Shown: piece after piece, positions 3,752 through 64,000 of the stretch
How positions within the stretch are numbered: the first letter of the stretch is position 1
How the letters are laid out: every line of letters starts with the position of its first letter
NCBI GenBank assembly: GCA_051294905.1
Contig: CM119372.1
Span: forward strand, 23,872,001 to 23,936,000
Direction: 5' to 3'
Source of the DNA: Botryllus schlosseri
Lineage: Eukaryota
DNA: 64,000 nt
Position numbers and translations under genes: made by a program
Notes under the pieces: generated by a model
Database searches by the model: none
What the model was told of the DNA's origin: nothing
The model's input: the letters and a program-made list of their open reading frames with translations, nothing else

Positions 3752-3901
3752 TAAGGAAGATAACTAGCTTTTGGACCCGTTTAGTACGGGAAAGGACGAG
3801 ATATTACTGGATATACTCGATATATACTGAATATACTTGATATTGGATATACTGGATAGCTGGATATACGACGTAGCAATTCAGGAAATATCCTATTAAC
3901 A

Positions 3902-4990
3902 ATGGCGACGGCCATGGAGACGTACAACGCTGACGATACCGATGCACAAAGAAATGCTACACAGGTATCATATGCAACAGTAACAGAAAGAGCAGAGAAT
4001 ACAACAGTACAGGGAAAAACCAACCAGGAAACACCGACGTTTAACCATACCAGACCAAATACTTTTTATATAAAGGGAAATGAAGACATTCAGGTCGTTA
4101 CAATAATTGAAGAATTACAACACAACAGCATCACAAGTAAATACTACAAATACATTGCAGGCTTATATGAGCTGAGGAATGGAATATGGATTATGAATTT
4201 GATCACAGAAACCAATGGAAAGAACTTGAGAGATGAATTGTACCACCAGATGAGACAAAACCCTAATGAAGCAAAATTCCGCAATATAACTTTCGAACTC
4301 CCAAGACGTCCAACGACACACCTCATTGTTAAAGGAATACCATACGAATCTAAAGAGGAGGATATAGCCGAACAATTGAGTGACTACGGTTTCGGGACAG
4401 TTATTAACCAGACCAGGGTCTTCAGAAGAAACACGAACTGGTATAATGGTTTCACTAACGTCTGGGTGGAAGAATTCAGAAAAGAAAACATGCCCTACCA
4501 TATAAAAGTTGATGGGTATGGATGCCTCATCAGAACAGCTGAAGACGCTTATCAGAAGCGATGTTACAGCTGTAATCTGACGGGACATATTGTAAAGGAA
4601 TGCCCGAATGAAAAATTGGAATGCACGACGTGCAAACGACTGGGTCATCGTGCAGACGAATGCAGGTCCAAACTTCGACGAGACAAACCCGGGTATACGG
4701 CCGAGCATGGAAATGCTGAAATAGCCAACAATGAAACAGTAGATACGGTTGACCCGAAAACAACCCGGAATGACGACATGAAAAGGAACGAAACAAGGCA
4801 GACGAGCCAGGCAATTATCAAAACATACTCCTCAACTGACGCCGCATTCGAAATTGCAGACTCAACACAGGAAGAAACCGAGCCAGAGCAAGCCGTGTTG
4901 GAAAACTACAATACTGACCAACACAGGGAGATACAGACGGCCGAAAAGCCAGCCATCAAAAAGCCGTCGGATACGAAACCTCATAAATAG
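3902..4990 (+). CDS. Non-LTR retrotransposon ORF1/gag-like protein with two CCHC zinc knuckles, probably prematurely terminated
   Basis: CYSCNLTGHIVKEC and CTTCKRLGHRADEC after an RRM-like region. The frame continues past TAG 4990 to about 5247 with one more stop. Confidence 0.8.
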   Translation: MATAMETYNADDTDAQRNATQVSYATVTERAENTTVQGKTNQETPTFNHTRPNTFYIKGNEDIQVVTIIEELQHNSITSKYYKYIAGLYELRNGIWIMNLITETNGKNLRDELYHQMRQNPNEAKFRNITFELPRRPTTHLIVKGIPYESKEEDIAEQLSDYGFGTVINQTRVFRRNTNWYNGFTNVWVEEFRKENMPYHIKVDGYGCLIRTAEDAYQKRCYSCNLTGHIVKECPNEKLECTTCKRLGHRADECRSKLRRDKPGYTAEHGNAEIANNETVDTVDPKTTRNDDMKRNETRQTSQAIIKTYSSTDAAFEIADSTQEETEPEQAVLENYNTDQHREIQTAEKPAIKKPSDTKPHK

Positions 4991-43300: not shown

Positions 43301-46300
43301 CATCACTTTTACCAATGCAATTGTCATACCAACCGGACGAAAGAGCCGCATTTATCCTGGTAACTGGATTGCACCTGGATTGCACCACAATAGCGTGATA
43401 TCAAAGCAATGTTCTAGAACTGGAATAGGTTATCGCTGAATTGGAAATAGTATCTCTTGAAGGCAAAAATCAATCTTTGTGAAATAAGACTCATCAACAG
43501 CATCCTATCATAAATAAAGTTATGATAAGCTTCTTGTGGAACTTATGCGCGATATTGTGAAGCTGAAGTATATCACAGGATAAGACCACGTATTATTGCA
43601 ACATTAAGTCATGCTCTGTAACAGTTGGGGATCCAACACACACACCTATCGGTATATCTATAGCCATATAGCCACTTTGAATTATTCCATACTCGCATTC
43701 ATTCTGCTCTCATTATCTTGTGGATATCAGGTATTGCGGCAACCGTAGGATGTACCACAGTAATCGTACTAACGTTCCGTGCAATGCGGAAGAGGAAGAC
43801 ATTGCGAAGCAGGCAAAGTGTTTCTGGCCATACGACGCTCATAAACATCATGTTATTAAGCTTAGCGGTGTCTGACCTTCTTGTCGGGGTAAGAAGCCGT
43901 TCGTGATTGCTGATTTTTATCCAGTCATTTGTGAATTGTTAATAAGCAGGTCTACACTCTGGTGATATGTATAAAGGCATCTAATCTGGATGTGCGTTAC
44001 TGTCAAGTTGATCGCGAATGGCGTAGTAGCACTACATGCTCTACACTTGGAGTGATAATGGTTATTGGATCAGAGCAATCAGTTTTAACAATGCTTTTGA
44101 TAGCAATTTATAGATTGCGTGCTGTAGTGAGGTGAGCATCATATTTGATCACCATAAAATCTGTTGTGGATCAATTCTACATTTCCGAATAGACTGCAGT
44201 ATACTTGGTATCTTTTGCCTAGGTTTAGAAGGATGTGTCCTCCTTTTTCAGGAAATCGAAAATGCCCTCCGATGACGGCTAAATGTCCTCCTTTTTGTAA
44301 ATTCGTCCTCCTTTATAGTTTTGACAGCCAGGCTAATGGACAGGCTGAAGTAAAAAATGCCATAAATGACGCAAAATATGTAGCCTAATGCGGACGTCCG
44401 AGCGGGTCATTCGGGAGTTAGACTGGAAAAATAACTTGTTTTTAGTTGACATAACATGATTTCCAGTACAAATTTCAGAACCAGCAGTTTTCTAGTCCCC
44501 TGAACTGACTTTTATGATTTGTGAAAAGCGTCATCCTTACCGGATTCCAAGGTATGGTAACTAGACAGCTCCCTTAAAATGCGCAGTGCTGAAACGGTCT
44601 CGGCGCACAGAAAATCTAAGCTGCGCACAAAAAATCTGAAGTGATGACTTTTTTTAGTCGTTGCAAAATGCGCACTGTTCTCCAAGGTATCGCGCAAGCG
44701 CGCAGACTCGTGAAAAATTAGACGGAACATTGCCAAGGACAAATAGTTCTCGCTGAAGTCTGAAACCGAGGTACAAGTGCGGCACGTAATGGTAAATATT
44801 GCGCACTGTGAAGAGATGATAATTTGCAATGACGTGGGCCTCATTTCAATAGCGCAATCTTTTTCTGGGGATGGCGAAATAACATGGTTTAAAAAAGTTA
44901 TCAATAAATAATAATTCGAAGTTAATCTGCGAGAAACTAACGAATAATATTCTCCGCGTGGCATGAACATTGCATAAGATTTACTGTACAATCACATGCC
45001 GTGAATTTTCGAAGTCATCGCTTCCATCAGGCAAATCTGATCACGTATGGTGAGATAGGAGAATATGCAAGTACAAGCACCAATATTATTGAAAAAATCC
45101 ATCCCCTTGCAAACGTTGATCGGGATATGCTTCAGCTGCGCACTGTGGGGCGTTGAATTACATCAGCTTCTCAGCAGCACAAATTTTGATTTTATTCGAT
45201 TTGTTTGAACGGGAATGTTCTGTCGATAAGGTCATACGCTAATATTGTTCTTGCTTCAGTCAGACTTGAATAATCGTATCATTATATATAACTGTATGTC
45301 TTGATAGTAGGTATGCCTACGTCGATCGCATGTATTGATTTGAAGTGCGTTCTCGTGCCAGTCGTGCGACTACTAGTAATCACCAATAGTAGTCACCAAT
45401 CACGATGTACGTACACGGAGTGATTGTGACGTCACATATTGTCCACAAAATTACGATTCGCCGTCTATAGTACTTGCGGTTACACGCGTCCGTTTGTGTC
45501 GCTGCAAGTGTTTTGGCTAGCTGCTTGCCTGTGTGGCCAACGTTGAGTGAATACTCGCTAATTCTGCTTGTCACCGTTTATACTGATCGCTTTTAATAAT
45601 GGCAAAACGAACGGGTAGTTTCTCATGCTCATCCCTTCACCAAGCCAAATTAACAAAGAAGTGCGAGCCGTTTAACATGGAATGGTTGTCGGAGCATGTG
45701 AAAACGGAAGACAAAAGTAGGTACGCCCGAAGACTTTAATTATTATTTAGGGGTCCTATACCTTTTCCAACACACCTGACTTGATCAGCGCTTCCGGTAA
45801 ATCTGATCACGTGAGCAGAGAGAGCATAAAAATTGATTGCAATATGCCGACTCAATCATGAATTATATAAATTTTTCGCGCCTCGTGCGTTCAGGCAACA
45901 CACACACCAAACGGACAACCAATCTAGACGATAAGCAGCGGCAAAAAGCGCATTTTTCTTGGAGGAAGAGTATCCAATCACCAAGATATTTGGAAACGTT
46001 GAATCGCAAAGTCACTGACGGCTTTTTCCAGTGAATTTTACAAATACATCCGTTTTCAATTACCGTCAACTAACTTTTATGATTTGGTAAAAGTGTCCCC
46101 CCTTCCAGATTCCAAAATATGGTAGCCCTAGTCGACACCGATAGTTGATGACTGGAAGTTTACTCGTAATTTTGCTCCGCTTCGCGAATCAATCCATATT
46201 TCTGAAACGTTTAGTCAAGTTGAGTCACACGAAAAAGTTGACTCGAGTCTGACTCTAATTATCTCAAAACTGCATTACACGTCATGTGTTGTTTTCTTTA

Positions 46301-49300
46301 CCAGAAGTTATTATTATTGATATAATTAATATCATATTTATAGGCATTTTTATATACTTTATTCACAGTAAAACTGGTAAATACACACATAATCCGGGGA
46401 GCAACCTGTCCCAAAGGAACATGGAGAGATTGGAGTAATTTCTTAAAATTTCAGTGATACAGTCAATTTGTTATTCCTATGCATGAAGAGCTCAGATTAC
46501 AGAATTCCGGTAGATGAAGAATTGGCAAGTGTTGTAGAGCAAAGGTAAAGATAATTGAAAATGAAGAATCAAAATTACAGAAATTATGCTGTGATTTATG
46601 CGCACAAGTGTAATTTTAGTCCAGTGGTGCATCAAGGCCTTCCGAAGAATATGCACTGTGCCCAATAACGTGATTTCTTCGATCATGTCGAATCGAACGT
46701 TACCCGGAATCTGTTGGATATGTCTCATGAGTTTTTTGGTTACGACCGCTGTAGCGTCAATGACTATCGGTACAATGTTTACTTTGCATCGCCACATTTT
46801 CTCACTTTCCATTTTGAGGTCTGCGTATTTCGATTGTTTTTCTGATTCCTGTTGTAGCATGATTTGAACAGCTGGGACGGCCAGTTCAATGAATAAGCAT
46901 TCCCTTTTCGTTTCAGTTTGATTATCATATCTGGGCGGTTGCTCCTGATTTCGCGGTCAGTTATAACTGGTACATCCCAAAAAATTTTTACTCGGTCGTT
47001 TTCTGTCACTGGTGCTGGGCTGTATTCATACCAATTTTTTGTCGAAGTTGTTATGTCAAAATGTTTGCATAATTCAAAAATGTAGTGACCAATCCTATTG
47101 TGTCTCCATGTGTATTTGGTAGCTGTATTATTAATAATAGAGATAAAAACAGTGAATTGAGTGGCGCTCATCAAGTAAGTGTATTTTCATGGTACGTTAC
47201 GTACGCACGCAAACCGGCGCCTAGAATGTTGTTGCATCGGGAGTAGCCTATCGCTGTGACTTTCTGTGAATAATCTAATCTTTTCCACCCTAACAGACCA
47301 TTTGCTCGTCCCGAACTACGCCGTGCGATAGTAGCAATTCTGGGGGCATGGGTGATTTCGATATTGCTTGCAGTTATTCCTGTGATTCCGAGTATGGAAG
47401 ATACTTTCAAGTCCAGTGTAGGGTAAGTATCACGGAGTTCATGTAACTCCATTCCATTATTTTTTTATTTTTTAAATATGACAACAGTTTGGATTCAAGA
47501 TACCGTGAGATTTTGTAATCTCTGTCATTCAAGTGTATATGTTCAACCTCGACGCACGTTAGTCTGAATTCAATCATGTCTTGATCAAAGTCTCTGCTGA
47601 AATGTTGGGCTTTAAAATAACTAATTGTTATATCCAGTTTCAGTGCGAACGATATCTTCAAGGTGGTAGCAATTAAAGAAGTTCCATATACGATCAACTG
47701 GCTTAATCTGATGCACAATGCCACATCTCGCACGGAACACTACGGGTAACGCATATATTTTATATGGGACTGTAACAGCATCAATATAGTAATCGGAGGC
47801 GTTTCTCAATACAGAACGACGAACTGGAAATATCTGAAGAACCTTATTTCCGAGATGAATCCTAACATCACCGTAATTTACGAATTTGGATATTATGCAA
47901 GTCATTCTGTGTGTCTTCCAGCATTTTTCCCTGAGCCTAAAGAGAGCAAAGCTTGGGGATATTCGACTGGGATTCTACTCATCAATTTCTTTGCATTTGT
48001 TTGCATGCTTGCCATCTACGTACTGTTGTACAGGTATTGTGAACTTTGTATCGTACTGTCGTCTAGGTACATTGTACATTGTACAATGTACATGTGCATA
48101 AGCTGCGACATATTTTTTCAATAAATCATAATATCTTTGAGTAGTAAATGTAATAGTGATACTAAAGTTGGAGAATCGATATCTAGCAGTATTTGGATCA
48201 AGTCATTATACCTTTCAGTCGTAATACGTCACTTCGAGTGAATGGGGAATCTAATCAAGTCATGTCAAAATTTATCTTCAGAATGCTTTGCAAAGGTCGA
48301 CTTGAAAATTGACTTCCATCCAATGTTTCCTCTAATTTTTGACGAGTGTGCGCACACTCATCTACTTACTGCGCAGACCCATGGACAACAGTGCGTAACG
48401 ACTAAAAAATGTCATCACTTCGAATTTTTTGTGCGCAACTTAGATTTTCTGCACGCAGAGACCGTGTCAGCACTGCGCGTTTGCGCACGTGCGCAGCTTA
48501 AAGGGAACATTGCTCCCATCAATCAATTCATGTTTCTCGAGTCTTTGTCATGCCAAGGCAATATAGCGTAGGCCAAATGATTTTGAGTAAAGTTAAGTCT
48601 TGCCATGACTCGGGTCATCCCAATATGGTATTTAGTGAAGATAAATTGGTATTATCCGACCCTAATGGATTTTGTATTGTATTGTGGACCACATCAAGGT
48701 GGCTGCATGGATATGAACTCACTACTTTATATACCTGACAAAACATAGTTTGTAAATGTTACACTTTGAGGCAGGGGTACACCGATGTCCGGTGACTGGC
48801 AAGACATTGAATATTTAAACGAATCATGAATTCGGAGAGACACTCTGCCATGTCTCTGCCGATATCACAGATTTTGCGGTATCGTATGTTTGCTCAGTAT
48901 CAAATTGGAAGATTTATGTATATCAGTTAGTATATTTGTGTTCTAACGCCGTATAAAAGTTCTAGTTTACAGGGAACAATACACAACCCAAAGCGTGATA
49001 ATGACTCGTTCAGCCATGTTGACTATTTCTCTTTGTGTCCAATCCTCAGCTAAGTTGTAATTCACATATAGACATGCTACGAAGAATAAAGGGAAACTCG
49101 TACGGATGTGTTCGGAAGAAAAGAAAATCACCAAACATAACGAGAATTTGCAACGCAAACTAACAAGGATACTTATCTCTGACTTCCTTTGCTGGATGCC
49201 GATATGCATTATGGGATTGTTGAATCTTTCCGGTGGGTTTTCGATATCAAATGAGACTAATTTATATTACTATCGGTTTCACCTCGGTCGACTCGCTTCC

Positions 49301-49809
49301 ATCTGGTCTCATGCAGAGATGAGTTCTGCTTCTCAGTATGTTTAACATTTCACTCCGACTGGGAGTTTGATTGTCTTCTGTGTGTGTAATATTATTTCTA
49401 CTTTAGCCTGGTTAACGATTGACTCTCGTCCCTCTCAAAATCTCGTCGATTGATGGATACTGTATAAGTTACCTTACTGTGTGTAGGCCGAACCAGACTT
49501 GATGACTAACGAGTACGTTTGGTGCAACGTTGCCCATAGGTATTATTGACATATATGTGTACATAATATCATGTCTGTTTCATTCCAGGCGTGCGTATCC
49601 CAAAAGACGCTTATCTGCCATCCGGACTACTAATAGTCCCCATAAACAGTGCTCTCAACCCGTTGCTGTACTCCGATCTACCCGAAATCATCTGTGGAAG
49701 GATGAAAATTATCAAATCATCGATATCGTCATCGATAAGCACGACGCAATCAAAACATATCTCTCTGCATGATAAAACCACCTCGCCAGATTCAAATGTA
49801 TTAATGTAG
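13209..49809 (+). CDS. Multi-exon gene: vWA domain + six LDLa modules + rhodopsin-class 7TM (RXFP/GRL101-like, no LRR seen). The 5' end is unresolved, with candidate upstream exons at 7-105 and 7066-7221
   Basis: Phase-compatible GT-AG exon chain: 13209-13360, 13964-14063, 17420-17574, 17836-17995, (28694-28773, 29098-29185), 30540-30701, 30759-30852, 31706-31755, 36311-36382, 36449-36572, 37608-37715, 37810-37873, 37954-38040, 42888-43017, 43731-43888, 43950-44131, 47297-47422, 47638-47745, 47815-48033, 49072-49232, 49589-49809 (TAG). Motifs: LDGSSS, ITDG, CDGxxDCxxxSDE, LAVSD, SDFLCWMP, PINSALNPLLY. Joining the vWA part to the LDLa-7TM part is inferred from strand, phase and absence of a stop. 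Confidence 0.75.
13964..14063 (+). CDS. vWA exon 2 (IQFSSTVQLEVDMHHANKETMKITIRNIQKLNEG)
   Basis: ttatag acceptor, GTATGT donor, typical vWA IQFSS strand, phase 0/1. Confidence 0.88.
15550..16035. mobile_element. hAT MITE (TIR CAGGGTTGTAAT) with GAGTC subterminal repeats
   Basis: TSD ATAGTGAC. Confidence 0.9.
16284..16874. mobile_element. hAT MITE, same family as 15550-16035
   Basis: TIR CAGGGTTGTAA and TSD GGGCCTGG. Confidence 0.9.
17420..17574 (+). CDS. vWA exon 3 (GTNTGAALDF...GAR...KVLVVITDG)
   Basis: MIDAS Thr and ITDG Asp motifs, GTAAAT donor, phase 1/0. Confidence 0.9.
17836..17995 (+). CDS. vWA exon 4 (SLGVEVFVIAIG...LASKP...HV...KKLC)
   Basis: vWA C-terminal pattern, GTAAGA donor, phase 0/1, no stop. 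Confidence 0.9.
19032..20478. mobile_element. Old non-autonomous hAT element
   Basis: Degenerate termini CAGAGGTCTCAAAC...GTTTGCGACTTCTG with GCGGGCC subterminal motifs. Confidence 0.6.
21813..23023. mobile_element. Non-autonomous hAT element containing the MITE at 22163-22517
   Basis: Outer TSD CTGTACAT and inner TSD GTCTAGAT. Confidence 0.85.
23862..24982 (+). mobile_element. 5'-truncated RTE-clade LINE (reverse transcriptase pseudogene)
   Basis: GVLQGDTLAPFLF and LAYADD motifs. One in-frame TAA at 24723, then the frame continues (AHDRPRW) to 24905. (TA)n tail. Confidence 0.9.
25888..26250 (-). mobile_element. tRNA-derived SINE, copy 2
   Basis: Same head and body as 9812-10140. Inserted next to the hAT transposase remnant. 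Confidence 0.8.
27161..27865. repeat. Diverged tandem duplication (~390-bp period) in a probable DNA-transposon terminus
   Basis: ACAGCACTTCGTCAGCCCCCC at about 27171 and 27559, followed by similar sequence. Confidence 0.6.
28694..28773 (+). CDS. Probable linker exon (EIHRIRSATKRVVKEYAIAHTDICDIE)
   Basis: Strong ttttcttcag acceptor and GTAACT donor. Only the phase-1 frame, which is the one required, is open. Confidence 0.5.
29098..29185 (+). CDS. Possible linker exon (MHIGRMLTLLNPQELCNESCDSLFLMSDD)
   Basis: Phase 0/1 bridges 28773 to 30540. An alternative boundary (29108-29143) is also possible. Confidence 0.3.
30540..30701 (+). CDS. LDLa module 1 exon (FQC...SICDGAFNCPDLSDECLC)
   Basis: tttcag acceptor, GTAAAA donor, LDLa consensus. 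Confidence 0.9.
30759..30852 (+). CDS. LDLa module 2, first exon (YCLSANGTYTAIDAAIICQNE)
   Basis: Preceded by a 57-nt intron, phase 1/2. Confidence 0.8.
31706..31755 (+). CDS. LDLa module 2, second exon (TDCINNEDAASYKSGC)
   Basis: ttacag acceptor and GTAAGC donor. Completes the ICQNETDCINNED module. Confidence 0.8.
32060..35106 (+). mobile_element. ~3 kb non-autonomous hAT element with (GGAGTC)n subterminal repeats, copy A
   Basis: TIR CAGGGCTGTGGAGTCGG and TSD CTTGCAGA. Confidence 0.92.
33575..34553. mobile_element. hAT MITE nested in copy A (GACTT/GAGTC repeats)
   Basis: TIR CAGTGTTGGGAT and TSD TAATCAGG. The site is empty in copy B (about 39485). Confidence 0.92.
36311..36382 (+). CDS. 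LDLa module 3, first exon (STSTNDLPTKSKDFICFNGTSTI)
   Basis: ttttcag acceptor, GTAAAA donor, phase 1/1. Confidence 0.8.
36449..36572 (+). CDS. LDLa module 3, second exon (ATACDGIPECSNILSEECEC...)
   Basis: ttgcag acceptor, GTGACT donor, CDG motif. Confidence 0.85.
37608..37715 (+). CDS. LDLa module 4 exon (EMCDGLQFCENFADERGC)
   Basis: cttgtag acceptor, GTAAGA donor, phase 2/2. Confidence 0.88.
37810..37873 (+). CDS. LDLa module 5, first exon (FYCSEDPLPNIPSHYRCNRRD)
   Basis: ttttcag acceptor, GTACGT donor, phase 2/0. Confidence 0.85.
37954..38040 (+). CDS. LDLa module 5/6 exon (DCQNKADERNCSLFRCNDTGLLEYIHEDA)
   Basis: tttag acceptor, GTGAGA donor, DCxxxxDExxC motif. Confidence 0.88.
38385..38804. 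mobile_element. Truncated copy of the element at 40718-41710
   Basis: Similar to 41232-41710 including the right terminus. Confidence 0.7.
38935..41997 (-). mobile_element. ~3 kb non-autonomous hAT element, copy B, inverted relative to copy A
   Basis: Same TIR as copy A, TSD GTTCTGAA. Confidence 0.92.
40718..41710. mobile_element. hAT MITE nested in copy B (GTTCAC repeats)
   Basis: TIR TAGGGATGGTGTGAAC and TSD GTTATTAA. The site is empty in copy A (about 32330). Confidence 0.92.
42272..42602 (-). mobile_element. tRNA-derived SINE, copy 3
   Basis: Same head (GGAGATAGCGTAGTGG ... GGCTCGATTC) and body as the other two copies. Confidence 0.8.
42888..43017 (+). CDS. End of LDLa module 6, hinge and start of TM1 (VCDGIQDCKSGSDECQRGC...IFAIAWII)
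   Basis: tacag acceptor and GTGAGT donor. The LDLa module runs directly into TM1. Confidence 0.92.
43731..43888 (+). CDS. TM1-TM2 exon (IAATVGCTTVIV...SLAVSDLLVG)
   Basis: LAxxD motif of TM2, GTAAGA donor. Confidence 0.92.
43950..44131 (+). CDS. TM2-TM3 exon (VYTLVI...WRSSTTCSTLG...SEQSVLTMLLIAIYRL)
   Basis: LGR/RXFP-type WxxSxxC and SExSV motifs, GTGAGC donor. Confidence 0.92.
46620..47130 (-). mobile_element. 3' fragment of an R4-like non-LTR retrotransposon (restriction-like endonuclease domain), frameshifted
   Basis: YTWRHN, KIFWD, NRPDM, EKQSKYADL, VPIVI and LLGTVHILRKAL motifs across two frames. Confidence 0.85.
47297..47422 (+). CDS. TM4 exon (PFARPELRRAIVAILGAWVISILLAVIP)
   Basis: taacag acceptor, GTAAGT donor, conserved TM4 Trp and Pro. 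Confidence 0.92.
47638..47745 (+). CDS. Extracellular loop 2 exon (FSANDIFKVV...TEHYG)
   Basis: tccag acceptor, GTAACG donor, symmetric phase 2/2. Confidence 0.7.
47815..48033 (+). CDS. ECL2-TM5 exon (FGYYASHSVCLPAFF...ILLINFFAFVCMLAIY)
   Basis: YxxxSVCLP motif, hydrophobic TM5, GTATTG donor. Confidence 0.92.
49072..49232 (+). CDS. ICL3-TM6 exon (ILISDFLCWMPICIMG)
   Basis: LGR-type DFLCWxP motif, phase 2/1. Confidence 0.93.
49589..49809 (+). CDS. Terminal exon: TM7 (PINSALNPLLY) and Ser/Thr-rich tail
   Basis: ttccag acceptor, NPxxY motif, TAG stop at 49807-49809. Confidence 0.93.
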
Positions 49810-50959
49810 GGTAGGCTATATTAGGCCTATATCTCATCCACGTACCGTGGTTGGCAATTTCGGTTTGCGCAAATTGACAAGCTTTCAGAAAATTATTATA
49901 AGTCGTATAAACAAGCAGAACCATCGCATTACCGCGTGAAAATATATTGATATTTCGGAACAACTTTTCTTCTCTTGTAAGTCTACCGTGAGCGTTTTAT
50001 GATCTATGGTGCAGTGCTCTCTGTTAATCACTTTGGTGCATGTCGTTTTTCTTGAAGTCTCATCAGGATTGTCGGCATAGCCAAAATATATTGAAATCGC
50101 TCAAACGTGGGCCTACTATAAAAACCGTCATCCGTGAGACGCACACGATACCAACTTCATATTTCTTTATGGAGCGCATCACTTTCCTATGCGTTTCGGA
50201 TTTGTAAGGTGGGGATCAGATTGCAAGGACACATTATATTAAAACCAAAAATTCCAAGTCGCCCTGAAGAAATTTTTTAAGTCGAATTAAAATCTCTCAA
50301 AGATTTTAGAACAAATTAAAATTGCATATTGACGGCCGCCAACACGCGCTAATATAAATATATGTAGACGGGCGTATAATTATAATTGCGGTTTACGGCG
50401 GCATGCGGCCGCACGTTCGTACTCCACATGTTGACCAATGACCACCCTGGCCTAATCGGAATAAGAATGAGCAAGGCTGCAGCGTATAGGACAGTGGTTC
50501 TTAAAGTATGGGTCGCGACCCAAACATAGGTCGCGAAGGGTATAATTTTGGGTCGCGACGGTACCAGAATGGTCCTTTAATATGTATGTAATATTATATG
50601 AGGTCATTGCAACAACGAAAATATCTTCGCTTTTCGCGCGATTTACTGTAGTTGGTTTGAGCATATCAGTAGTTAGGTAAATGGGCACGACGTGCCAAAA
50701 CACGATTTATAATAAACAAACAAAGATTATCAATATAATAATTAATGAAAGAATTAGCTCATTCTCAATTTTGCAGCAATACTTTTATGACCCTGTGTGC
50801 GGCAATAAAAAAAGGGGGAATAATTAACGATAGAGAGAAAACAAACAAAGAATCTGGATTGACCTTTGTACACAGACATGAGACTTGGGTCATTCTACTT
50901 GTACTTTTCCACTCCTGATTTTACCTCGCTTGACCTCTGGACACGAGACTTGTATATTT

Positions 50960-51365
50960 AGTATTTTTTTAATGAGTCTTGATAATAGCTACCTGTCCTG
51001 ACCTATCGGTCCGCGGTCAATCCTAGGACGAGTCTTGGGAATAATTGCCCGCCAAACCCCCTGGATGACTTGTCGCTCCGCGTTTGATTCAATTTCGTGT
51101 ACGGGGGGGGTCATAGGAATAATTGCCGGTCGTGACGTCAGTATAGTTTTCTTCTGATCCATGAGATCCTGGACGGGGCTTGATAATAGTTGCCTGCCCT
51201 GACCCGTCGTCTCGTGGTCCAATTTCGTGGCTTGGGAGCAATAACCCGTCAAACTGGTTGACTCGTCGTTCCGCGGTTGATTCAATTTCGTGTACGATGG
51301 GTCATAGGAATAATTGCCGGTCGTGACGTCAGTATAGTTTTCTCCTGATCAGTGAGATCCTGGTG
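50960..51365 (-). repeat. Diverged tandem repeat (~195-bp period) with recurring GGCAATTATTCC-type motifs
   Basis: 51084-51172 is nearly identical to 51277-51363. Confidence 0.7.
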
Positions 51366-51859
51366 CGTGTTTTAGGTGTCTATACGTTCGGCTGTGCATA
51401 GTGACGCGTGTAGTCTGTTCCATACTGCCGTACTTGCTCTTGCTTTGTTGTCGACTTAAATAGTAAGGAGAATTGATCTGCTCTGGTTATAAATATGTGT
51501 GTTATTTTGAGTCATATCGAGAACCAGAATGTCGTGTATTAGAAATAGGTATTAGGCGCCCCCGACATAGATTAACTTGAATAAAGTACCATTTAGAATA
51601 TAATAAGTAATTAAAGAAATAGCTCATTCTCAATTTGACTCGCATCAACGTGTTAATTTCCGATATTGTAGTAATTGGTGCAAGCAAAAACTGCTGTTCC
51701 ACACCTTTACCGCTTTCTAGCGTATTAGGACAGACAGTCCCAACCAAACAATGTGATGGGTTCTTCTACTGCTTCACGTCTGGTCAAGCGTAATCATGCC
51801 GGTGTCTGTAAATGATATACAATTTACCTCGGTATATTATTTTTGTATGCTGTACATGA

Positions 51860-54455
51860 TGTACAACTTGAATCGATCAGTTGTCGAACTAATGCTTTAC
51901 CGGTATGTACGATCGATCACGAGCTCACCACGCACTTGTCGTTCGAGAGCGACTCATTTCGCTATAGACAATCAGTTGTGTTCGCGTGTACCGTAATATA
52001 TCCTCAACACTTGTTATGCCAACACCTCCAAGCATATTTACAATATCATGCTAAGGAACTATTGCTTCGGCAGCCACGCGCTGTCGTTCGAATTCGACTA
52101 ATTTCGCTGTAGACAATCAGTTGTGCTCGTGTGTGTCGTAACATATCCTCAACACATGTTATGCCAACACCGCCGAGCATATTTGCAGCATCATACTACG
52201 GATATATTGAACCGGCGAAGTGTTACCGTCAGAGAATTGCTGCGCCACACCTTCGAGCCTCGCTTTCGCGCTCGGTAACTGCGAGTACGATGTCAGATTC
52301 AATTGTCCAGTGACGAATCGGGGTAGCTCGCTTCATCGGGGTGGACAGACCTTATTTGGCTGAAACGCGCTCGGTGGTGCAATAATGGGAATGAATTGTG
52401 ACAGATCATACCTGATACGATCTATAGCCTGAGGTGAGGTGTAAAGTAGAGTGGGAGATTTCGAAATCGGAATCCACTGCGACTATAGGATTGCAAAATC
52501 AAAGTCCAAAAAATCCGACTGGCCCGTAAAGTCCTGGTATTTCCATGTATTAGGCTGGTAAAATGTAACATAAATCCAACTCTCAAAGACACTTGGCCGC
52601 ATCCAGTCCGGGTTTAACCAAAACTGATGAAATCTGCGCCGGGTCCGGAAACGAATCGTGACCACCCCCGTCCAGACAAAATAGTTCTGCTGTAAGGGGA
52701 GTGTCGTTGTACATTAATTTGCGTACAGCGAGACTTTGTATCGACTCATTGACGGACTTCTGTTTGTATCGCGTTTGGTTTAGAATCCCAATTCTATATA
52801 GTGCGGCCCGCGAAATGATTCAAATGTTGAATGCGGCCCGCGAGCTCAAAAGTTTGCCCACCCCTGATGTATATTGTACCACTTGAATCGATCTGTTGGC
52901 GAACTAATGCTTTGCCCGTCTGTAACATACACATATCGATCACGAGCTCACCACGCACTTGCCGCTCGAGAGCGACTGATTTCGCTATAGACAATCAGTT
53001 CAGTGTTGCCAATTTAGCGATTTTCGCGCTAGATCTAGCGATTTTTCATCCGGTTTAGCGCTAAAAATATGGATCTAGCGCCCAGCGATAAATCTAGCGA
53101 TTTTTGAAATGGTATTTAGCGATTATTTAGCGCTTTTTACCGAAAATAACTAATAAAGATCGGTTCTGGCCGACGACTATGGCGACTCATCTGCCACCAG
53201 AGTGCGGACTCCAATGATATGTAATGAAATTAATGATGGATTACTAACGTACGGATAGATACGCAACTCCTGGCGGTTACGCATGGGCAAACAGTGTCTC
53301 TTCTTGCTGTGTAAAGTAGCATAATTGACAGTGCTACATCTGGCGACCTGAGCGCTGCAATTTAATATGATTGGCCTTGATCGAAAGCTAGTGTCGCAGT
53401 GATTTCGAAGATGCAAAATAAAATCTCGTCAGGACAATGGAACCATGCACCCCGAAACAGCCCTCGAAGTCTGAAAACCAGCATTGCTTCAATAATGGCA
53501 CCGCCGCAACACAATGGACATAACAATGACCAATTTCGTCCAGCGATTGTTCTGATCAATGTCGATTTTCAGACTCTTGGGGCTACTTTGAGGTCGTTGC
53601 ATTGTCTTTACAAGAATTTAATTCGTATTGTCGGAATCAGTGTGACACTGGCGTTTAAGACCAGATTCATTAAATTTCTTACTCCGGGTTGGTCCTCTAC
53701 TTTTAGTGGCTGGCAAACCCGGTTCAAGTCGTGTTGTATCGGGTCAAGTCGCATGTTGCGTACAAGTGTGTCAAGTCGCATGTCGTGTTCAAGTACTCCA
53801 ACTCAGTTTCGAGAAGTCAAGCGCATTTCCGCGGTACATCGCATCACTATTCACGGACGCATGGAGCAAGGCACGCTTATAGAGTGAGCGGTTATGCCTG
53901 CAAACCTGGTCAGTGGTCACGTATAGCGATCATTGCGCAAAGCGATCCGCTCTACCGAAACGCACTGCACGTTTTGTTCCGCCTAGAGATGAATATTACG
54001 TATTATGAACTAGAAATATGATAAGTGACTTTGGCCCCCAGGCGAGTAAAATACAGCTGAGAAGAGTGTATTGATATTATGGTTCAATTTAACACCTTTA
54101 GCAATTAATGTAGATCTAGCGCTATTTTTTAGCGCTCTTTTCTCAATATTTAGCAACATCTAGCGATTTTTGACACCAGTTTTGGCGATTTTCTTCCATC
54201 CGGAGTTGGCAACACTGAATCAGTTGTGTTCGCGTGTACCGTAACGTATCCTCAACACTTGTTATGCCAACACCAATATCATACTAAGGAACTATTGCTT
54301 CGGCAGACACGCACTGTCGTTCGAATTCGACTAATTTCGCTGCTGACAATCAGTTGTGCTCACGTGTGCCGTAAAATATCCTCAACAAATGTTATGTCAT
54401 ATTTGCAGCATCATACTATGGACGTATTGACTCGGCGGAGTGTTACCGTGAGAGA
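51860..54455 (+). repeat. Diverged direct duplication: 51860-52230 versus 52870-53000 plus 54218-54455, the second copy split by a MITE
   Basis: Shared ACTTGAATCGATC...GCTATAGACAATCAGTT|GTGTTCGCGTGTACCGTAA. Confidence 0.8.
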
Positions 54456-57126
54456 AATGCTGTTTGACCCCCTCGTCCTAGCCTTGAATTTACCGTTTCG
54501 AAAAATTCCACCAGAAGAAGCTGTGATCGAGTGTCACAATCAATGTCAGCCACGCTCCATCAATCTGTTGTTTTGACAAAACCAGTACGTATACGCCGGA
54601 GATGAGCATTGATTAGGATTTAGAAAAAACGTATTTGTGAAATTTTTCCGGATTAGGTTGAATTAAGTTTTGAGATTGATTTACTATATCGTACGGGCAA
54701 CTACTACCGAGACCCGTCGTGACGAAATCGGATGAATCAGTCATGGAACGACAAGTTAGGGCTAACCGCTTATATTCCTAGTTTATTCTTGAAAGCTCTA
54801 TAGATTACTGGTTAGCTGCATGTTGTGGGCGATTGACAACAGTTAGTTGTCGCTGTTATACAATTTACACTTTGTGTTATACATTCCTCGTTACCACCGC
54901 GAACTAGGAGGTCAATCACGACGACGGGCAACTACTCCCAATTGGCGGAATACTGTTTGATTCATCTGTATAATCAGGTTTAGCACCACAAGAAGTATAT
55001 TAGTAGTTTATGATTGAATGAAATCTATCCATCAAACAACGATAACAACTATATAGATCTCGTTCGTATTACTATGAAAGCTAATCGATCACGTCCACAC
55101 AATATTATTACGTAGCATTCATTTGATGGGGTTGTTGTTGTTAGTATTGTAACATGGTGATCGGCTACTATGACCTTTACACCAGTTCTAAAAGGGTAAG
55201 GAATTGGTTAGTGTTACAGCTGTCTGACGGTGGGGTATTCGACAAAATTACTATGTTTTACTACGGAAGCTATGATCACACGGACGGGCTCTCATCACTT
55301 ATCGTACGAATGCTTGTAATCTCGATGTAGTGTGATACACACGAATCAGCTGTGATCAGTCGAGTGTGACACGATCGAAGTCACTATTTACTGTTTGAAA
55401 TAACTCGTATATTCCGTTCAAGAAATGTCCCTCATTTGTCCAAATATCCTCCTTTTTGTCAAATTGTCTTCCTTTTTTTATCTTAAAATATCTAAAAAGA
55501 CTACGAATGGCACTAAATGATGACCTAGTTTACGAGCGATGGGTATTTCGGGAGTCAGGGGACAAAATGAGCTTTTTTAGTCAACACCATGAAATTTGAT
55601 GTATAAACATACAAATCATTCGTCCGCTATAGTAACTTTTTGCAGCTCGTGAAAAGTGTCCTCCTTTCGGGGCTTATGTTAACCCTATATTTTACCAGCT
55701 TTTAGTCTCGGACTTGAACATCGAAGTTTGCACATAATTTCACATTACATTCCCTATGACAAGCATAGGCTATTACGGTTATGGGACCTGTGCTCTCAAA
55801 CATGTATTGATGAATAGCGAAAGCGACCACAAGCTATCATTACATGAAAAAAACGAGCTCACTAGCCGGTCCATGTTGGGATGTACACACCAATGGCCAT
55901 GTCCATGATCTGAAGTTTGCACATAATTTCACATTGCATTCCCATGACTTAGCACATACTATTACGTGGGTATGGGGTCTGTGCTTTTCAAACATGTATC
56001 GATGAATACCGAAAGCGACTCAAGCTACCATTACACGAAAAATCGAGCACACTCGTTCCTCCCTGTCGGGGTATACCCACCTTCGTTTCGTACAGACAAA
56101 TGTTTCCATGTTGCAGCGAGAATAGCGGGGAGGGTGGTAGATCATTATCACAATAAGTACCTTGGGATGAGTGTGAAATCGACATCGTCCGTTAAGCGAC
56201 TGAAGCAAGTCGCCACTACAATCACTCTCTGCGTAGTGCGTAAACGCAACGTACAAAGCGCTGCTGGGTATACGAAACTACGGATTCTAGCCAAAGCGAG
56301 GTTATCGAGATAGCTGTAGCGATTCACAACACATGCTAAATCTCCTTGAAATGGGAGTACAAAATGTATCGCTTTGAAATACTCAAGTAGAAGTAGTTGT
56401 TAAAGAGTAATTCGCACCGTAAAATTGCAACTGTTTTGGAGTGCTAATGTCACACAATTGCTATATTGATCACTCGCTTATGTGTAGAAAGCAGAAATTG
56501 ACCCCTGGGTTGTACGATCTCGTGGCCTTGACAAACGTTCTATAGCTCAAAAGTCACTGTCATGTTGGGCTTTGATTGCTGTTGTACTCTTGTTAGCGTC
56601 GATATTCATTGGTACGTGTTTTCATGGTCTAAAATGTTGGTTATTATAGAGTGTTTTCGTAAAAGGTTGGGAGCCACTGATTTAGGCCTTGATGGGTTCA
56701 ACCAAATACACGTGTAACACATCCTATTCCTGGGCCGTAACCGATCCTTTACCACACCTTCTATACGATAAACGTCCTTTTTATCCAGAGGTAAGCCGAC
56801 GACATACGGGAAATGCGGGCGCTGACGTGCTATTTTGTTATTCTCTCCGCGTAGCATGAAAGAAGGTATTGAGGTACCCTCCCCAGGTCACTGCGAGCGT
56901 AAGTTAAGTCAATCTCTGTGTATGTAGTGTTAATGTCGCACCGTCGCAATAATGTTCACTTATGTGTAGAAAGCAGAAATTGACGACTCGATTACTTGTA
57001 CGAGCTTGTAGCTTTGGTAAGCTTGCTGAAGCGGAAAGCCACTCAAGTTGGACATTAAATTGATTGGTGTTCATTCTCTTGTTAGCGTTGATAGTCGTTG
57101 GTACGTGCTTTCGTGCTTTAAAATTT
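52346..57126 (+). repeat. Left arm of a large inverted repeat. The outer limit is set only by the window end of the other arm
   Basis: Reverse complement of 58800-64000. Mirror ORFs have identical translations, and coordinate sums are 116346 (outer), 115918 and 115926 (inner). Confidence 0.97.
53001..54217. mobile_element. Non-autonomous hAT element (TIR CAGTGTTGCCAA) with TAGCG subterminal repeats
   Basis: TSD AATCAGTT. The paralogous site at about 51970 is empty. Confidence 0.9.
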
Positions 57127-59970
57127 TCAACGAATTTTAAAGATAAATAAAGAAAAAGCTGATTCACACTTTTGCAAGCAATACTTCCGGGTATCCCGCT
57201 GTGCGGTAATGAAAAGAGGAGATTTAGGTCATAGCGAAATAGAATAAACTTCAAAAATGGGGTTGATAAATTTTGTAAAGTACCATAAGACATACTCAAC
57301 ATCAACTAATGAATTAGATATGATGTCTTGATGTCATGTGACTATGAAATCGGTTACACATTGTAACACATCGGTATCAGACAATAACTTATACAAGCTT
57401 AAATGTGTGTTAATTTGCTTTGTAATGTGTGTTAGTGGGCATGGGGATGATTATTTCATCAATTGAATCGATTGCGATTACGATTACTGCTGAATCATCC
57501 GACTATAATTACGGTTACAGAAAAATCCCACAAGTAGTCGAAACGTAATCACCAAGGTGCTAATTTGTTATCTCTCCTCCGTCATATGTCACCGGGTATA
57601 GGCATTGATACAATGCAGTATTGAATGCGATCCTAATAAGAATTGATACTATGCAGTGTTGACCGTGATATGTGAGGACCCCTGCTGTATGCTAATATGT
57701 CTTTTTACAAAAGTTATCACTCGTAACCCCCACAGTGTGCGAGTTATCAACAAATCGCAGACACACTACTTCGCATAGGGGAGAATAATAACCCTCCACT
57801 CTGCTTAGTTTCAAATAGCAAAGCAATTATTGACGTTTCTTGTGTGTTAAACACATTTGGAACGCTGCTCCTTGGCCAGTAGTACGAACAGCGGACATCT
57901 ATTTGAAGTTTTACACTCATCAAATAATACATGACAAATTTCCACATCAAAGCAATAAAATCATCGGGTACCAAAATAAATCATAACCGAGCCCGGTGGT
58001 AACGACAGCTCGCGGCCTTGTACGAATTATCTAACTAATTGGTTGACGGTCAGCCATCTGCGGTTTTATGTAGTTATAGTTGCGGAGTTAAAAAAGTCAG
58101 TTGTTCGAGTTCTAGTTGCGCATTCTAGAACTGATTTCGCTGTGAAACTTGAACTGTAGAATAAAACATGTGTCGCGGTTTCACGTAAATCATGATACCG
58201 ATGTTCTGTTATGTGATGTGCTTGCGGCCGTTGTTAGCTCACAGTCAGCGATACTAACAGTGGCTTAGGAAGGGTTTCAACCACTTCAAATTCAAAGACC
58301 TATCCTTTCAAAATACCGATTCTATGTCTAATACTTCTTAGCTCATTTCCAAATCATCATTAATCCGTATTATCGGAAATCATAGTCAGTTGTACAGCCT
58401 AGTTTATATTGCTACTTCATTTATGTACCCTCTTCATTACAACACACTAGGTGGCGGAAACGAGTAAAAATATTTATTTAAACGTATAGCACGTAGTGGG
58501 GGTACTTGTCGATCGCGTTGAACACTGTATTGTCGGGTACCACAGCCCAATGTCTACCTACCCTGTCATGTGACGTCGAAATAATAACGAAATGGCACGT
58601 TAGTGCTGCGTCTTCACAGATCATCGTGCTACGTATGAGTAAAAGCTACGTTTACCATATAGAAGGTGTGGTAAAAGATCGGTTTCGGCCCGGGGTAGGA
58701 TGTGTTACACTGTTACACGCGTATTTTGTTGAACACATCAAGGTCTAAATCAGTTGTTCCTGCCTATTTATGACCATCCTTCGATGATAACAATAACATA
58801 AATTTTAAAGCACGAAAGCACGTACCAACGACTATCAACGCTAACAAGAGAACGAACACCAATCAATTTAATGTCCAACTTGAGTGGCTTTCCGCTTCAG
58901 CAAGCTTACCAAAGCTACAAGCTCGTACAAGTAATCGAGTCGTCAATTTCTGCTTTCTACACATAAGTGAACATTATTGCGACGGTGCGACATTAACACT
59001 ACATACACAGAGATTGACTTAACTTACGCTCGCAGTGACCTTGGGAGGGTACCTCAATACCTTCTTTCATGCTACGCGGAGAGAATAACAAAATAGCACG
59101 TCAGCGCCCGCATTTCCCGTATGTCGTCGGCTTACCTCTGGATAAAAAGGACGTTTATCGTATAGAAGGTGTGGTAAAGGATCGGTTACGGCCCAGGAAT
59201 AGGATGTGTTACACGTGTATTTGGTTGAAGGCCTAAATCAGTGGCTCCCAACCTTTTACGAAAACACTCTATAATAACCAACATTTTAGACCATGAAAAC
59301 ACGTACCAATGAATATCGACGCTAACAAGAGTACAACAGCAATCAAAGCCCAACATGACAGTGACTTTTGAGCTATAGAACGTTTGTCAAGGCCACGAGA
59401 TCGTACAACCCAGGGGTCAATTTCTGCTTTCTACACATAAGCGAGTGATCAATATAGCAATTGTGTGACATTAGCACTCCAAAACAGTTGCAATTTTACG
59501 GTGCGAATTACTCTTTAACAACTACTTCTACTTGAGTATTTCAAAGCGATACATTTTGTACTCCCATTTCAAGGAGATTTAGCATGTGTTGTGAATCGCT
59601 ACAGCTATCTCGATAACCTCGCTTTGGCTAGAATCCGTAGTTTCGTATACCCAGCAGCGCTTTGTACGTTGCGTTTACGCACTACGCAGAGAGTGATTGT
59701 AGTGGCGACTTGCTTCAGTCGCTTAACGGACGATGTCGATTTCACACTCATCCCAAGGTACTCATTGTGATAATGATCTACCACCCTCCCCGCTATTCTC
59801 GCTGCAACATGGAAACATTTGTCTGTACGAAACGAAGGTGGGTATACCCCGACAGGGAGGAACGAGTGTGCTCGATTTTTCGTGTAATGGTAGCTTGAGT
59901 CGCTTTCGGTATTCATCGATACATGTTTGAAAAGCACAGCCCCCATACCCACGTAATAGTATGTGCTAAG

Positions 59971-60390
59971 TAGGGCTGGGCACAATGATTCGAGTACTCG
60001 AATCTGAATCGAGTATTAATCCTAATGATTCGAGTCGAGTAGTAAGAGGTGATTTTTTCGAGTACTGAAATCGTACGCTCCAAGTCAATAACAGTAAATT
60101 GATCAACGAAAATTATAATTCGATACCATTTTCCACTCAGGAAGCCTTGAAACTTCGATTAGTCGTATGACAGCATATGTAACACGTATTGCAAAGCTAC
60201 AAATTACCTTTACATGGTGTACGACAGGTTTTATGTTATTTGCGGTAGGATAAAATTCATATTTGAATTTTGTCATCTCCCATACTGATGTGACGTCATA
60301 ATAAGTGATACTCGATTACTCGACTCGACTCGAATCAAAATACTCGATTCAGAATCGAATCACTCAGGTACTCGATTTTGCCCAGCCCTA
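59971..60390. mobile_element. hAT MITE present only in the right arm
   Basis: 12-bp TIR TAGGGCTGGGCA and TSD GTGCTAAG. The site is empty at about 55950 in the left arm. Confidence 0.95.
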
Positions 60391-62128
60391 GTGCTAAGTC
60401 ATGGGAATGCAATGTGAAATTATGTGCAAACTTCAGATCATGGACATGGCCATTGGTGTGTACATCCCAACATGGACCGGCTAGTGAGCTCGTTTTTTTC
60501 ATGTAATGATAGCTTGTGGTCGCTTTCGCTATTCATCAATACATGTTTGAGAGCACAGGTCCCATAACCGTAATAGCCTATGCTTGTCATAGGGAATGTA
60601 ATGTGAAATTATGTGCAAACTTCGATGTTCAAGTCCGAGACTAAAAGCTGGTAAAATATAGGGTTAACATAAGCCCCGAAAGGAGGACACTTTTCACGAG
60701 CTGCAAAAAGTTACTATAGCGGACGAATGATTTGTATGTTTATACATCAAATTTCATGGTGTTGACTAAAAAAGCTCATTTTGTCCCCTGACTCCCGAAA
60801 TACCCATCGCTCGTAAACTAGGTCATCATTTAGTGCCATTCGTAGTCTTTTTAGATATTTTAAGATAAAAAAAGGAAGACAATTTGACAAAAAGGAGGAT
60901 ATTTGGACAAATGAGGGACATTTCTTGAACGGAATATACGAGTTATTTCAAACAGTAAATAGTGACTTCGATCGTGTCACACTCGACTGATCACAGCTGA
61001 TTCGTGTGTATCACACTACATCGAGATTACAAGCATTCGTACGATAAGTGATGAGAGCCCGTCCGTGTGATCATAGCTTCCGTAGTAAAACATAGTAATT
61101 TTGTCGAATACCCCACCGTCAGACAGCTGTAACACTAACCAATTCCTTACCCTTTTAGAACTGGTGTAAAGGTCATAGTAGCCGATCACCATGTTACAAT
61201 ACTAACAACAACAACCCCATCAAATGAATGCTACGTAATAATATTGTGTGGACGTGATCGATTAGCTTTCATAGTAATACGAACGAGATCTATATAGTTG
61301 TTATCGTTGTTTGATGGATAGATTTCATTCAATCATAAACTACTAATATACTTCTTGTGGTGCTAAACCTGATTATACAGATGAATCAAACAGTATTCCG
61401 CCAATTGGGAGTAGTTGCCCGTCGTCGTGATTGACCTCCTAGTTCGCGGTGGTAACGAGGAATGTATAACACAAAGTGTAAATTGTATAACAGCGACAAC
61501 TAACTGTTGTCAATCGCCCACAACATGCAGCTAACCAGTAATCTATAGAGCTTTCAAGAATAAACTAGGAATATAAGCGGTTAGCCCTAACTTGTCGTTC
61601 CATGACTGATTCATCCGATTTCGTCACGACGGGTCTCGGTAGTAGTTGCCCGTACGATATAGTAAATCAATCTCAAAACTTAATTCAACCTAATCCGGAA
61701 AAATTTCACAAATACGTTTTTTCTAAATCCTAATCAATGCTCATCTCCGGCGTATACGTACTGGTTTTGTCAAAACAACAGATTGATGGAGCGTGGCTGA
61801 CATTGATTGTGACACTCGATCACAGCTTCTTCTGGTGGAATTTTTCGAAACGGTAAATTCAAGGCTAGGACGAGGGGGTCAAACAGCATTTCTCTCACGG
61901 TAACACTCCGCCGAGTCAATACGTCCATAGTATGATGCTGCAAATATGACATAACATTTGTTGAGGATATTTTACGGCACACGTGAGCACAACTGATTGT
62001 CAGCAGCGAAATTAGTCGAATTCGAACGACAGTGCGTGTCTGCCGAAGCAATAGTTCCTTAGTATGATATTGGTGTTGGCATAACAAGTGTTGAGGATAC
62101 GTTACGGTACACGCGAACACAACTGATT

Positions 62129-63345
62129 CAGTGTTGCCAACTCCGGATGGAAGAAAATCGCCAAAACTGGTGTCAAAAATCGCTAGATGTTGCTAAATAT
62201 TGAGAAAAGAGCGCTAAAAAATAGCGCTAGATCTACATTAATTGCTAAAGGTGTTAAATTGAACCATAATATCAATACACTCTTCTCAGCTGTATTTTAC
62301 TCGCCTGGGGGCCAAAGTCACTTATCATATTTCTAGTTCATAATACGTAATATTCATCTCTAGGCGGAACAAAACGTGCAGTGCGTTTCGGTAGAGCGGA
62401 TCGCTTTGCGCAATGATCGCTATACGTGACCACTGACCAGGTTTGCAGGCATAACCGCTCACTCTATAAGCGTGCCTTGCTCCATGCGTCCGTGAATAGT
62501 GATGCGATGTACCGCGGAAATGCGCTTGACTTCTCGAAACTGAGTTGGAGTACTTGAACACGACATGCGACTTGACACACTTGTACGCAACATGCGACTT
62601 GACCCGATACAACACGACTTGAACCGGGTTTGCCAGCCACTAAAAGTAGAGGACCAACCCGGAGTAAGAAATTTAATGAATCTGGTCTTAAACGCCAGTG
62701 TCACACTGATTCCGACAATACGAATTAAATTCTTGTAAAGACAATGCAACGACCTCAAAGTAGCCCCAAGAGTCTGAAAATCGACATTGATCAGAACAAT
62801 CGCTGGACGAAATTGGTCATTGTTATGTCCATTGTGTTGCGGCGGTGCCATTATTGAAGCAATGCTGGTTTTCAGACTTCGAGGGCTGTTTCGGGGTGCA
62901 TGGTTCCATTGTCCTGACGAGATTTTATTTTGCATCTTCGAAATCACTGCGACACTAGCTTTCGATCAAGGCCAATCATATTAAATTGCAGCGCTCAGGT
63001 CGCCAGATGTAGCACTGTCAATTATGCTACTTTACACAGCAAGAAGAGACACTGTTTGCCCATGCGTAACCGCCAGGAGTTGCGTATCTATCCGTACGTT
63101 AGTAATCCATCATTAATTTCATTACATATCATTGGAGTCCGCACTCTGGTGGCAGATGAGTCGCCATAGTCGTCGGCCAGAACCGATCTTTATTAGTTAT
63201 TTTCGGTAAAAAGCGCTAAATAATCGCTAAATACCATTTCAAAAATCGCTAGATTTATCGCTGGGCGCTAGATCCATATTTTTAGCGCTAAACCGGATGA
63301 AAAATCGCTAGATCTAGCGCGAAAATCGCTAAATTGGCAACACTG
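62129..63345. mobile_element. Mirror copy of the hAT element at 53001-54217
   Basis: Duplicated as part of the palindrome arm, with the same TSD. Confidence 0.9.
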
Positions 63346-64000
63346 AACTGATTGTCTATAGCGAAATCAGTCGCTCTCGAGCGGCAAGTGCGTGGTGAGC
63401 TCGTGATCGATATGTGTATGTTACAGACGGGCAAAGCATTAGTTCGCCAACAGATCGATTCAAGTGGTACAATATACATCAGGGGTGGGCAAACTTTTGA
63501 GCTCGCGGGCCGCATTCAACATTTGAATCATTTCGCGGGCCGCACTATATAGAATTGGGATTCTAAACCAAACGCGATACAAACAGAAGTCCGTCAATGA
63601 GTCGATACAAAGTCTCGCTGTACGCAAATTAATGTACAACGACACTCCCCTTACAGCAGAACTATTTTGTCTGGACGGGGGTGGTCACGATTCGTTTCCG
63701 GACCCGGCGCAGATTTCATCAGTTTTGGTTAAACCCGGACTGGATGCGGCCAAGTGTCTTTGAGAGTTGGATTTATGTTACATTTTACCAGCCTAATACA
63801 TGGAAATACCAGGACTTTACGGGCCAGTCGGATTTTTTGGACTTTGATTTTGCAATCCTATAGTCGCAGTGGATTCCGATTTCGAAATCTCCCACTCTAC
63901 TTTACACCTCACCTCAGGCTATAGATCGTATCAGGTATGATCTGTCACAATTCATTCCCATTATTGCACCACCGAGCGCGTTTCAGCCAAATAAGGTCTG

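Follow-up and report, generated by a model that had tools for sequence, protein, structure and literature searches.

Drosophila foldback (FB) transposons carry target-site duplications (TSDs) of 9-11 bp and arms made of arrays of short tandem repeats, and among Maverick/Polinton elements the zebrafish Polinton-1N1_DR is, by Repbase naming, non-autonomous. Here we analyse a giant palindrome of Botryllus schlosseri (contig CM119372.1 of GenBank assembly GCA_051294905.1), which runs off the right-hand end of a stretch of 64,000 nucleotides (positions 23,872,001 to 23,936,000 of the forward strand). This whole stretch is called the window below, and all coordinates are counted from its first base. 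We read the palindrome, with a probability of about 0.7, as one integrated copy of a gene-less, non-autonomous Maverick satellite of the snapback type, some 15.0 kb long and palindromic over its whole length.

Vertebrate Mavericks have (AGT)2//(ACT)2 ends, 6-bp TSDs, lengths of 12.7-24.6 kb and terminal inverted repeats (TIRs) that measure 46-1,447 bp, according to Barreat and Katzourakis 2021 (PMC8097293). The palindrome resembles them in a candidate 5'-(AGT)2 end, a candidate 6-bp TSD and a predicted size of 15.0 kb, which lies within their range. Unlike them, it holds no frames for a polymerase, integrase, ATPase, protease or capsid, its right end is out of view, and its arms are about 6.46 kb long. 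Polinton-1N1_DR is named in PMC9341505; Tlr1 is called a non-autonomous Polinton yet bears genes (PMC5499653); foldback transposons of Drosophila are mentioned in PMC6431247. With non-autonomous Polintons such as Polinton-1N1_DR, compared by name only, our element would share dependence on a helper combined with Polinton ends.

A second likeness is to the asymmetric snapback genomes of adeno-associated virus (AAV), which are self-complementary molecules made from one parental end, with a single-stranded loop, and are replicated by helper proteins (PMC8235507). In contrast to these, the palindrome is integrated, 15 kb long and multi-copy in an animal genome, and it carries host miniature inverted-repeat transposable elements (MITEs). 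Its likely helper would be protein-primed, as against the parvovirus of AAV snapback genomes. We found no description of Mavericks palindromic over the whole element in the literature searched, most subscription papers and the Repbase reports being outside the reach of that search.

The two arms and the loop between them

Self-comparison of the window placed the palindrome where the preliminary description had put it: positions 52346-57126 are the mirror of 58800-64000, with a loop of 1,673 bp (57127-58799) between them. The arms had been called near-perfect. Their outer portions are identical, left 52346-55946 matching the reverse complement of 64000-60400 over 3,601 bp without a mismatch. 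The inner portions, left 55947-57126 and right 59971-58800, differ by four substitutions (left 55978, 56155, 56884 and 57073) and by an 8-bp stretch that is absent from the right arm (left 56689-56696, placement ambiguous). In addition, the right arm holds 428 bases without a partner in the left one, a point that had gone unmentioned; these are a 420-bp MITE and its 8-bp target duplication. The position given as the start of the left arm, 52346, pairs with base 64000, where the window stops. It is thus no biological end of the element, and the left arm very probably extends leftward. The outer left arm, taken to cover 50668-52345, is suggested by high summed contig depth in three DNA runs (X1, X5 and X6, see below), by shared variants and by internal repeats.

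The inverted arms that can be seen as such measure at least 4.78 kb. They are pieced together from degenerate tandem units, 145-490 bp in length, along with nested insertions. TRF reported only short arrays inside them, and most of the arm length is not short-unit satellite.

We compared positions 47000-58900 with four of 24 public runs, namely DNA contigs from three studies (X1, X5 and X6) and RNA reads (X24). Among the 40 differences listed of 357, three positions (54184, 54734 and 55537) are ones at which all compared contigs of the three DNA runs differ from the window, yet the two arms agree with each other. At 55552 nearly all contigs have five more bases, and both arms of the window again agree. 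These alleles appear to be rare, a soft call given that contigs drop rare variants. Agreement of both arms at rare alleles indicates that alleles are shared between the arms, which polishing toward the majority of the family would not produce. Larger changes behave in the same way: a 1,217-bp hAT-type insertion occurs in both arms, and X1 holds a variant without the block 52765-54971 that contains it, which indicates that the insertion entered one arm and spread to its partner by copying.

The small differences are not spread evenly. Of the 4,781 bp of paired arm, only the innermost 1,180 contain any of the five (P about 0.0009, for a boundary picked post hoc). The outermost lies some 25-30 bases loop-ward of the site of the 420-bp MITE, at which the identical portions of the arms give way to the differing ones. 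This pattern suggests that the arms were corrected from the terminus inward and that correction halted at the MITE. In our reading, a single strand would fold into a panhandle during helper-driven replication, one arm would serve as the template for the other from the terminus inward, and the MITE would have blocked this in the inner 1.18 kb. Two points weigh against correction as the source of the pattern. The identity of the outer arms could be due to the assembler collapsing them up to the MITE, and the loss of rare variants from contigs makes the rare alleles themselves less certain.

Alternatively, the outer arms may have been homogenised in the chromosome after insertion, by repair of a hairpin or cruciform or by intrachromatid conversion. 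We regard this as a serious possibility, though one with less than an even chance; it would concern only the upkeep of the arms and is compatible with the identity proposed for the element. Indeed, an X1 contig (55869-56776) crosses the empty MITE site unbroken. The MITE may, therefore, be confined to this copy and have arrived after the element inserted, in which case correction that stops there would have taken place in situ. However, since contigs drop rare variants, a parent copy with the MITE could have escaped them, and replication through a panhandle explains the symmetric insertions simply.

The loop retains traces that bear on the origin of the palindrome. The tandem unit of about 490 bp continues unbroken from the right arm into the loop, where it reaches 58563; its counterpart in the left arm is cut at 57126. 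Thus, the right arm and the loop would be ancestral, and the junction 57126/57127 derived. Eleven bases inside the derived junction begins a relic of the sub-terminal segment of the element, oriented like an ordinary left inverted end; it aligns with a score of 82, whereas 59 control tiles reached at most 38.5 and 100 block shuffles at most 45.5. These features suggest that the palindrome arose by copy-back. A parent of about 8 kb, with ordinary short inverted ends, would have lost its left tip, and the lost tip would have been replaced by copying back the right 6.46 kb. A different route may have been the capture of the end of a sister element. Copy-back is weakened by the loop relic being merely 66% like the terminus, and by a second relic, at 51536, which shows that copies of the terminus also arise by other routes.

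The candidate left end and the coding content

AGTAGT at position 50668 is the sole occurrence of this motif on the plus strand between 48146 and 55001. It corresponds to the (AGT)2 end motif of Mavericks/Polintons, and we infer from the sequence that it is the left end of the element, with a 6-bp target-site duplication in front of it. Counted from there, the arm would be 6,459 bp long and the whole element 15,011 bp (two arms of about 6.46 kb and a loop of 1.67 kb), with its right end predicted at 65678. At that place ACTACT is expected, followed by CATATC and then by what is left of a broken MITE, which would have an end of the GAACCACTG type together with GTATAGGA.

The left part of this broken MITE begins at 50492, in the flank, and has the same type of end as three intact MITEs of 294-374 bp. 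Neither a right TIR (best match 11/14, without a TSD) nor the second copy of its 8-bp TSD, GTATAGGA, was found downstream within the window. The MITE, thus, looks interrupted, which supports an end at 50668. A further internal relic of the terminus (51536-51636) aligns from 50669, that is, at the motif. Depth also changes here: the value implied for 50668-50969 is the highest, at about 260-370 times that of a single copy, against 50-80 for the body of the MITE, both being rough figures extrapolated from one position. Many contigs of the public runs have loose ends at 50487-50492, and four X1 and five X5 contigs diverge from this copy behind 50783, a hint of other families that share only the tip.

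Several observations count against the end at 50668, or against the Maverick membership that follows from it. AGTAGT has a chance of about 0.14 of occurring in 400 bp, and no loose contig ends at 50668 were found among the 24 listed of 1,562. Only the left end and the left copy of the TSD are visible, their right counterparts lying beyond the window. A helper Maverick was not seen either: pattern scans with the candidate terminus, the flank and a sub-terminal motif returned no loci in metagenome contigs or in viral contigs. With neither a helper nor the right-hand end and its TSD copy in view, the element counts as a candidate Maverick derivative. Shuffled sequences fold as well as the terminal 301 bases do (z 0.54).

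The preliminary description saw no clear protein-coding content in the arms, and the frame scan agrees. None of 67 stop-to-stop frames of at least 48 aa in 50400-60450 (right-arm duplicates excluded) reached a Pfam cut-off; six had weak matches (E 0.02-0.08), all far under the cut-offs. The longest ATG frame in 50500-59100 has 158 aa, Atlas searches with frames of 113 aa and 132 aa gave no usable match, and Rfam and ARAGORN reported nothing in the window. Nor did 50668-58800 match any phage sequence by Megablast. RNA run X24, of which about 6% was read, has a depth of 0-0.5 on the inner arm and loop, but also at most 0.7 on exon bins of a neighbouring G-protein-coupled receptor (GPCR) gene, and is thus insensitive as a test for the long dsRNA that the preliminary description envisaged. 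No RNA run was among the indexed ones listed as containing the sequence. Short or spliced genes of an unrecognised family may lie inside the element.

The core genes of autonomous Mavericks (protein-primed DNA polymerase B, retroviral-type integrase, ATPase, protease and capsid) were not among these frames, so the element is not an autonomous Maverick and, having no detectable genes, would be unable to replicate or integrate alone. Most likely it depends on Maverick/Polinton enzymes. The protein-primed polymerase of a helper would begin at the ends, and the helper's integrase would insert the copy.

A rival identity is a multi-copy foldback element, FB/Mutator-like or of another cut-and-paste type, with giant modular arms. 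Its true end would lie elsewhere in about 50492-50740, and AGTAGT would be there by chance. A foldback-type element had been among the first proposals for this locus, and as a description of architecture it fits. Like Drosophila FB elements, the palindrome has long inverted arms, degenerate tandem units (here of 145-490 bp) inside them and no coding capacity. The Maverick-type end is visible on one side only. Unlike Drosophila FB elements, the palindrome has larger arms that are mostly not short-unit satellite, and its candidate end and 6-bp TSD are of the Maverick type. Moreover, the terminus-like relic aligns from 50669, right at the motif, and the predicted size falls in the Maverick range. 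As an identity for the element we consider foldback improbable.

Copy number and the arm/loop junctions

Depth was taken as the length-weighted depth of the long contigs shown, with the neighbouring GPCR gene as a single-copy control; summed contig depth is no true copy number, and all ratios are rough. For the GPCR gene, loop and inner arm we obtained 11.7, 96 and 229 in X1, and 96.7, 486 and 1392 in X5. In X6 the GPCR gene was barely covered, and loop and arm had depths of 3.4 and 9.4. The loop is, thus, at 8.2 times single-copy depth in X1 and 5.0 times in X5, and the inner arm at 19.6 and 14.4 times, respectively. The ratio of arm to loop was 2.38 (X1), 2.86 (X5) and 2.79 (X6). A ratio above 2 suggests sister families that share the arm but have other centres, and two X6 contigs have different letters before 58815.

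Both junctions between arm and loop occur in public DNA: one lies in a contig of X5 that begins at 57097, the other in a contig of X1, a run from a different study, that ends at 58829. The part of each contig within an arm is exactly 30 bp long; if words of 31 letters are assumed, a loop joined to an arm on both sides should give just this overlap. By depth, then, the element is present in several copies, as a mobile element would be; their dispersal is probable, although the flanks of the other copies are unseen. We conclude that the palindrome is a multi-copy element rather than a misjoin or a duplication at a single locus.

Within the loop, 57322-57718 is a short high-copy repeat whose summed depth is some 40-80 times that of neighbouring loop bins. 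Contig breaks near 55958, 56698 and 57072 were considered as family-wide differences between the arms and dropped, the first two being off the expected places.

The depth of the loop bears directly on whether the palindrome arose locally, by fold-back duplication of a repeat-rich segment with a spacer in between, its arms and loop being merely dispersed repeats. The palindrome does have the geometry of the fold-back inverted duplications of Hermetz et al. 2014 (PMC3907307), with an inverted copy, a spacer of a few kb and one derived junction, here the left one. In those duplications, however, the spacer is disomic. The present spacer is multi-copy (5.0 and 8.2 times GPCR depth), including in the loop contigs that carry the junctions (depth 483 in X5 and 81.5 in X1), the GPCR gene in the flank stays at single-copy depth, and the unit is apparently mobile. 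A local duplication is therefore quite unlikely, and the single inverted segmental duplication proposed at the outset no longer fits, as loop and arms are multi-copy in both DNA runs that cover the control. Nor does the palindrome fit as the centre of a head-to-head gene duplication, also suggested then: the GPCR gene is at single-copy depth, stops before the candidate terminus and points toward the centre.

An assembly artefact, from a fold-back read or from two haplotypes joined in inversion, is very unlikely: although 3,601 mismatch-free bp that stop at a structural variant are what a collapsed graph node gives, and no contig spans the whole stretch, each junction was found in a run from a different study, a MITE with a proper TSD and five small changes set the arms apart, and arm depth, which a misassembly was predicted to halve, is 2.4-2.9 times loop depth.

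Genomic setting and implications

The positions of the element's parts are collected in Table 1.

Table 1. Parts of the palindromic element and insertions in and beside it (window coordinates)
Feature	Position	Strand	Basis or remark
Broken hAT-type MITE in flank, CAGTGGTTC end; probably the insertion target	50492..50667	+	
Candidate 6-bp TSD CATATC, left copy only	50662..50667	+	Six bases preceding AGTAGT
Candidate left terminus AGTAGT	50668..50673	+	Motif as in PMC8097293
Outer left arm (putative), mirror past window; degenerate tandem units of ~200 bp and 145 bp	50668..52345	+	
Decayed internal copy of first ~100 bp of terminus	51536..51636	+	Aligns to 50669-50771, score 72.5; 81% over 57 bp
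Left arm, portion with visible mirror	52346..57126	+	Self-comparison
Non-autonomous hAT-type insertion, 1,217 bp, 8-bp TSD AATCAGTT, in both arms	53001..54217		TIR match 12/12 with TSD
Loop (spacer), 1,673 bp, about 5-8 times single-copy depth	57127..58799		Self-comparison and contig depth
Relic of sub-terminal segment 50736-50884 at loop start	57138..57291	+	66% identity, E 1e-8
~490-bp tandem unit of right arm continuing into loop	58563..58799	-	
Right arm, stops at window end; predicted end near 65678	58800..64000	-	Self-comparison
hAT-type MITE, 420 bp, TAGGGCTGGGCA ends, 8-bp TSD GTGCTAAG	59971..60390		Right arm only
Mirror copy of the 1,217-bp hAT-type insertion	62129..63345		Right arm

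The window is rich in hAT-type MITEs and retroelement fragments and has a GC content of 41%. Over its whole length CpG is not depleted (observed/expected 1.09), and the repeats here thus show no sign of long-term CpG methylation. The GPCR gene to the left of the palindrome is a spliced LDLa/7TM receptor gene on the plus strand (about 42870-49809), present at single-copy depth. Its matches to the Pfam families Ldl_recept_a and 7tm_1 are weak, each under the cut-off, because single exons were scanned; we take it to be relaxin-receptor/GRL101-like. In a homologue search with one of its exon frames, none of 12 candidates passed E 0.001. One of its introns contains a frameshifted fragment on the minus strand (46492-47186) without a Pfam match, which presumably resembles the C-terminal zinc-finger/endonuclease part of a site-specific non-LTR (long terminal repeat) retroelement.

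Positions 32060-41997 were considered as a second inverted repeat and rejected, being two separate insertions. These are non-autonomous hAT-type elements of about 3.05 kb (32060-35106 and 38935-41997) with CAGGGCTGTGGA ends, in opposite orientation and each with its own 8-bp TSD. They are 87-93% alike, contain nested MITEs and mimic an older palindrome. Elsewhere, an open frame of 376 aa with two CCHC zinc knuckles (3860-4990, plus strand) is like ORF1 of LINE elements, and one or more exons of a gene with a von Willebrand factor A domain lie at 17404-18093 (plus strand). A reverse-transcriptase fragment (23838-24725, plus strand) and a fragment of a hAT transposase dimerisation domain (25600-26013, minus strand) share a stretch of 3.6 kb (23156-26777) whose ends are TIR-like and which has an 8-bp TSD.

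It has been proposed that Mavericks replicate by way of a single strand folded on itself, and adenovirus repairs its ends through a panhandle-type intermediate; to our knowledge, the folded single-strand intermediate of Mavericks has not been observed. If the reading of the palindrome as a Maverick satellite is extended, the copy described here would belong to a family of integrated, gene-less copy-back satellites that spread as 15-kb palindromes, at near the size of their helper, with arms corrected inward via a panhandle. We put this forward tentatively, at odds below even. Were it true, the present copy, with its MITE as a block, would record the polarity of correction and provide direct genomic evidence for the Maverick replication intermediate.

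The contribution of this copy is the relic end in its loop together with the polarity of its arm differences. Where a whole element is palindromic and has Maverick ends, the insertions common to both arms and the polarity of their differences would record copying from arm to arm, in a manner testable from sequence. More generally, an animal genome can carry several near-perfect palindromes of 15 kb with a 1.7-kb loop, though such structures are usually unstable.

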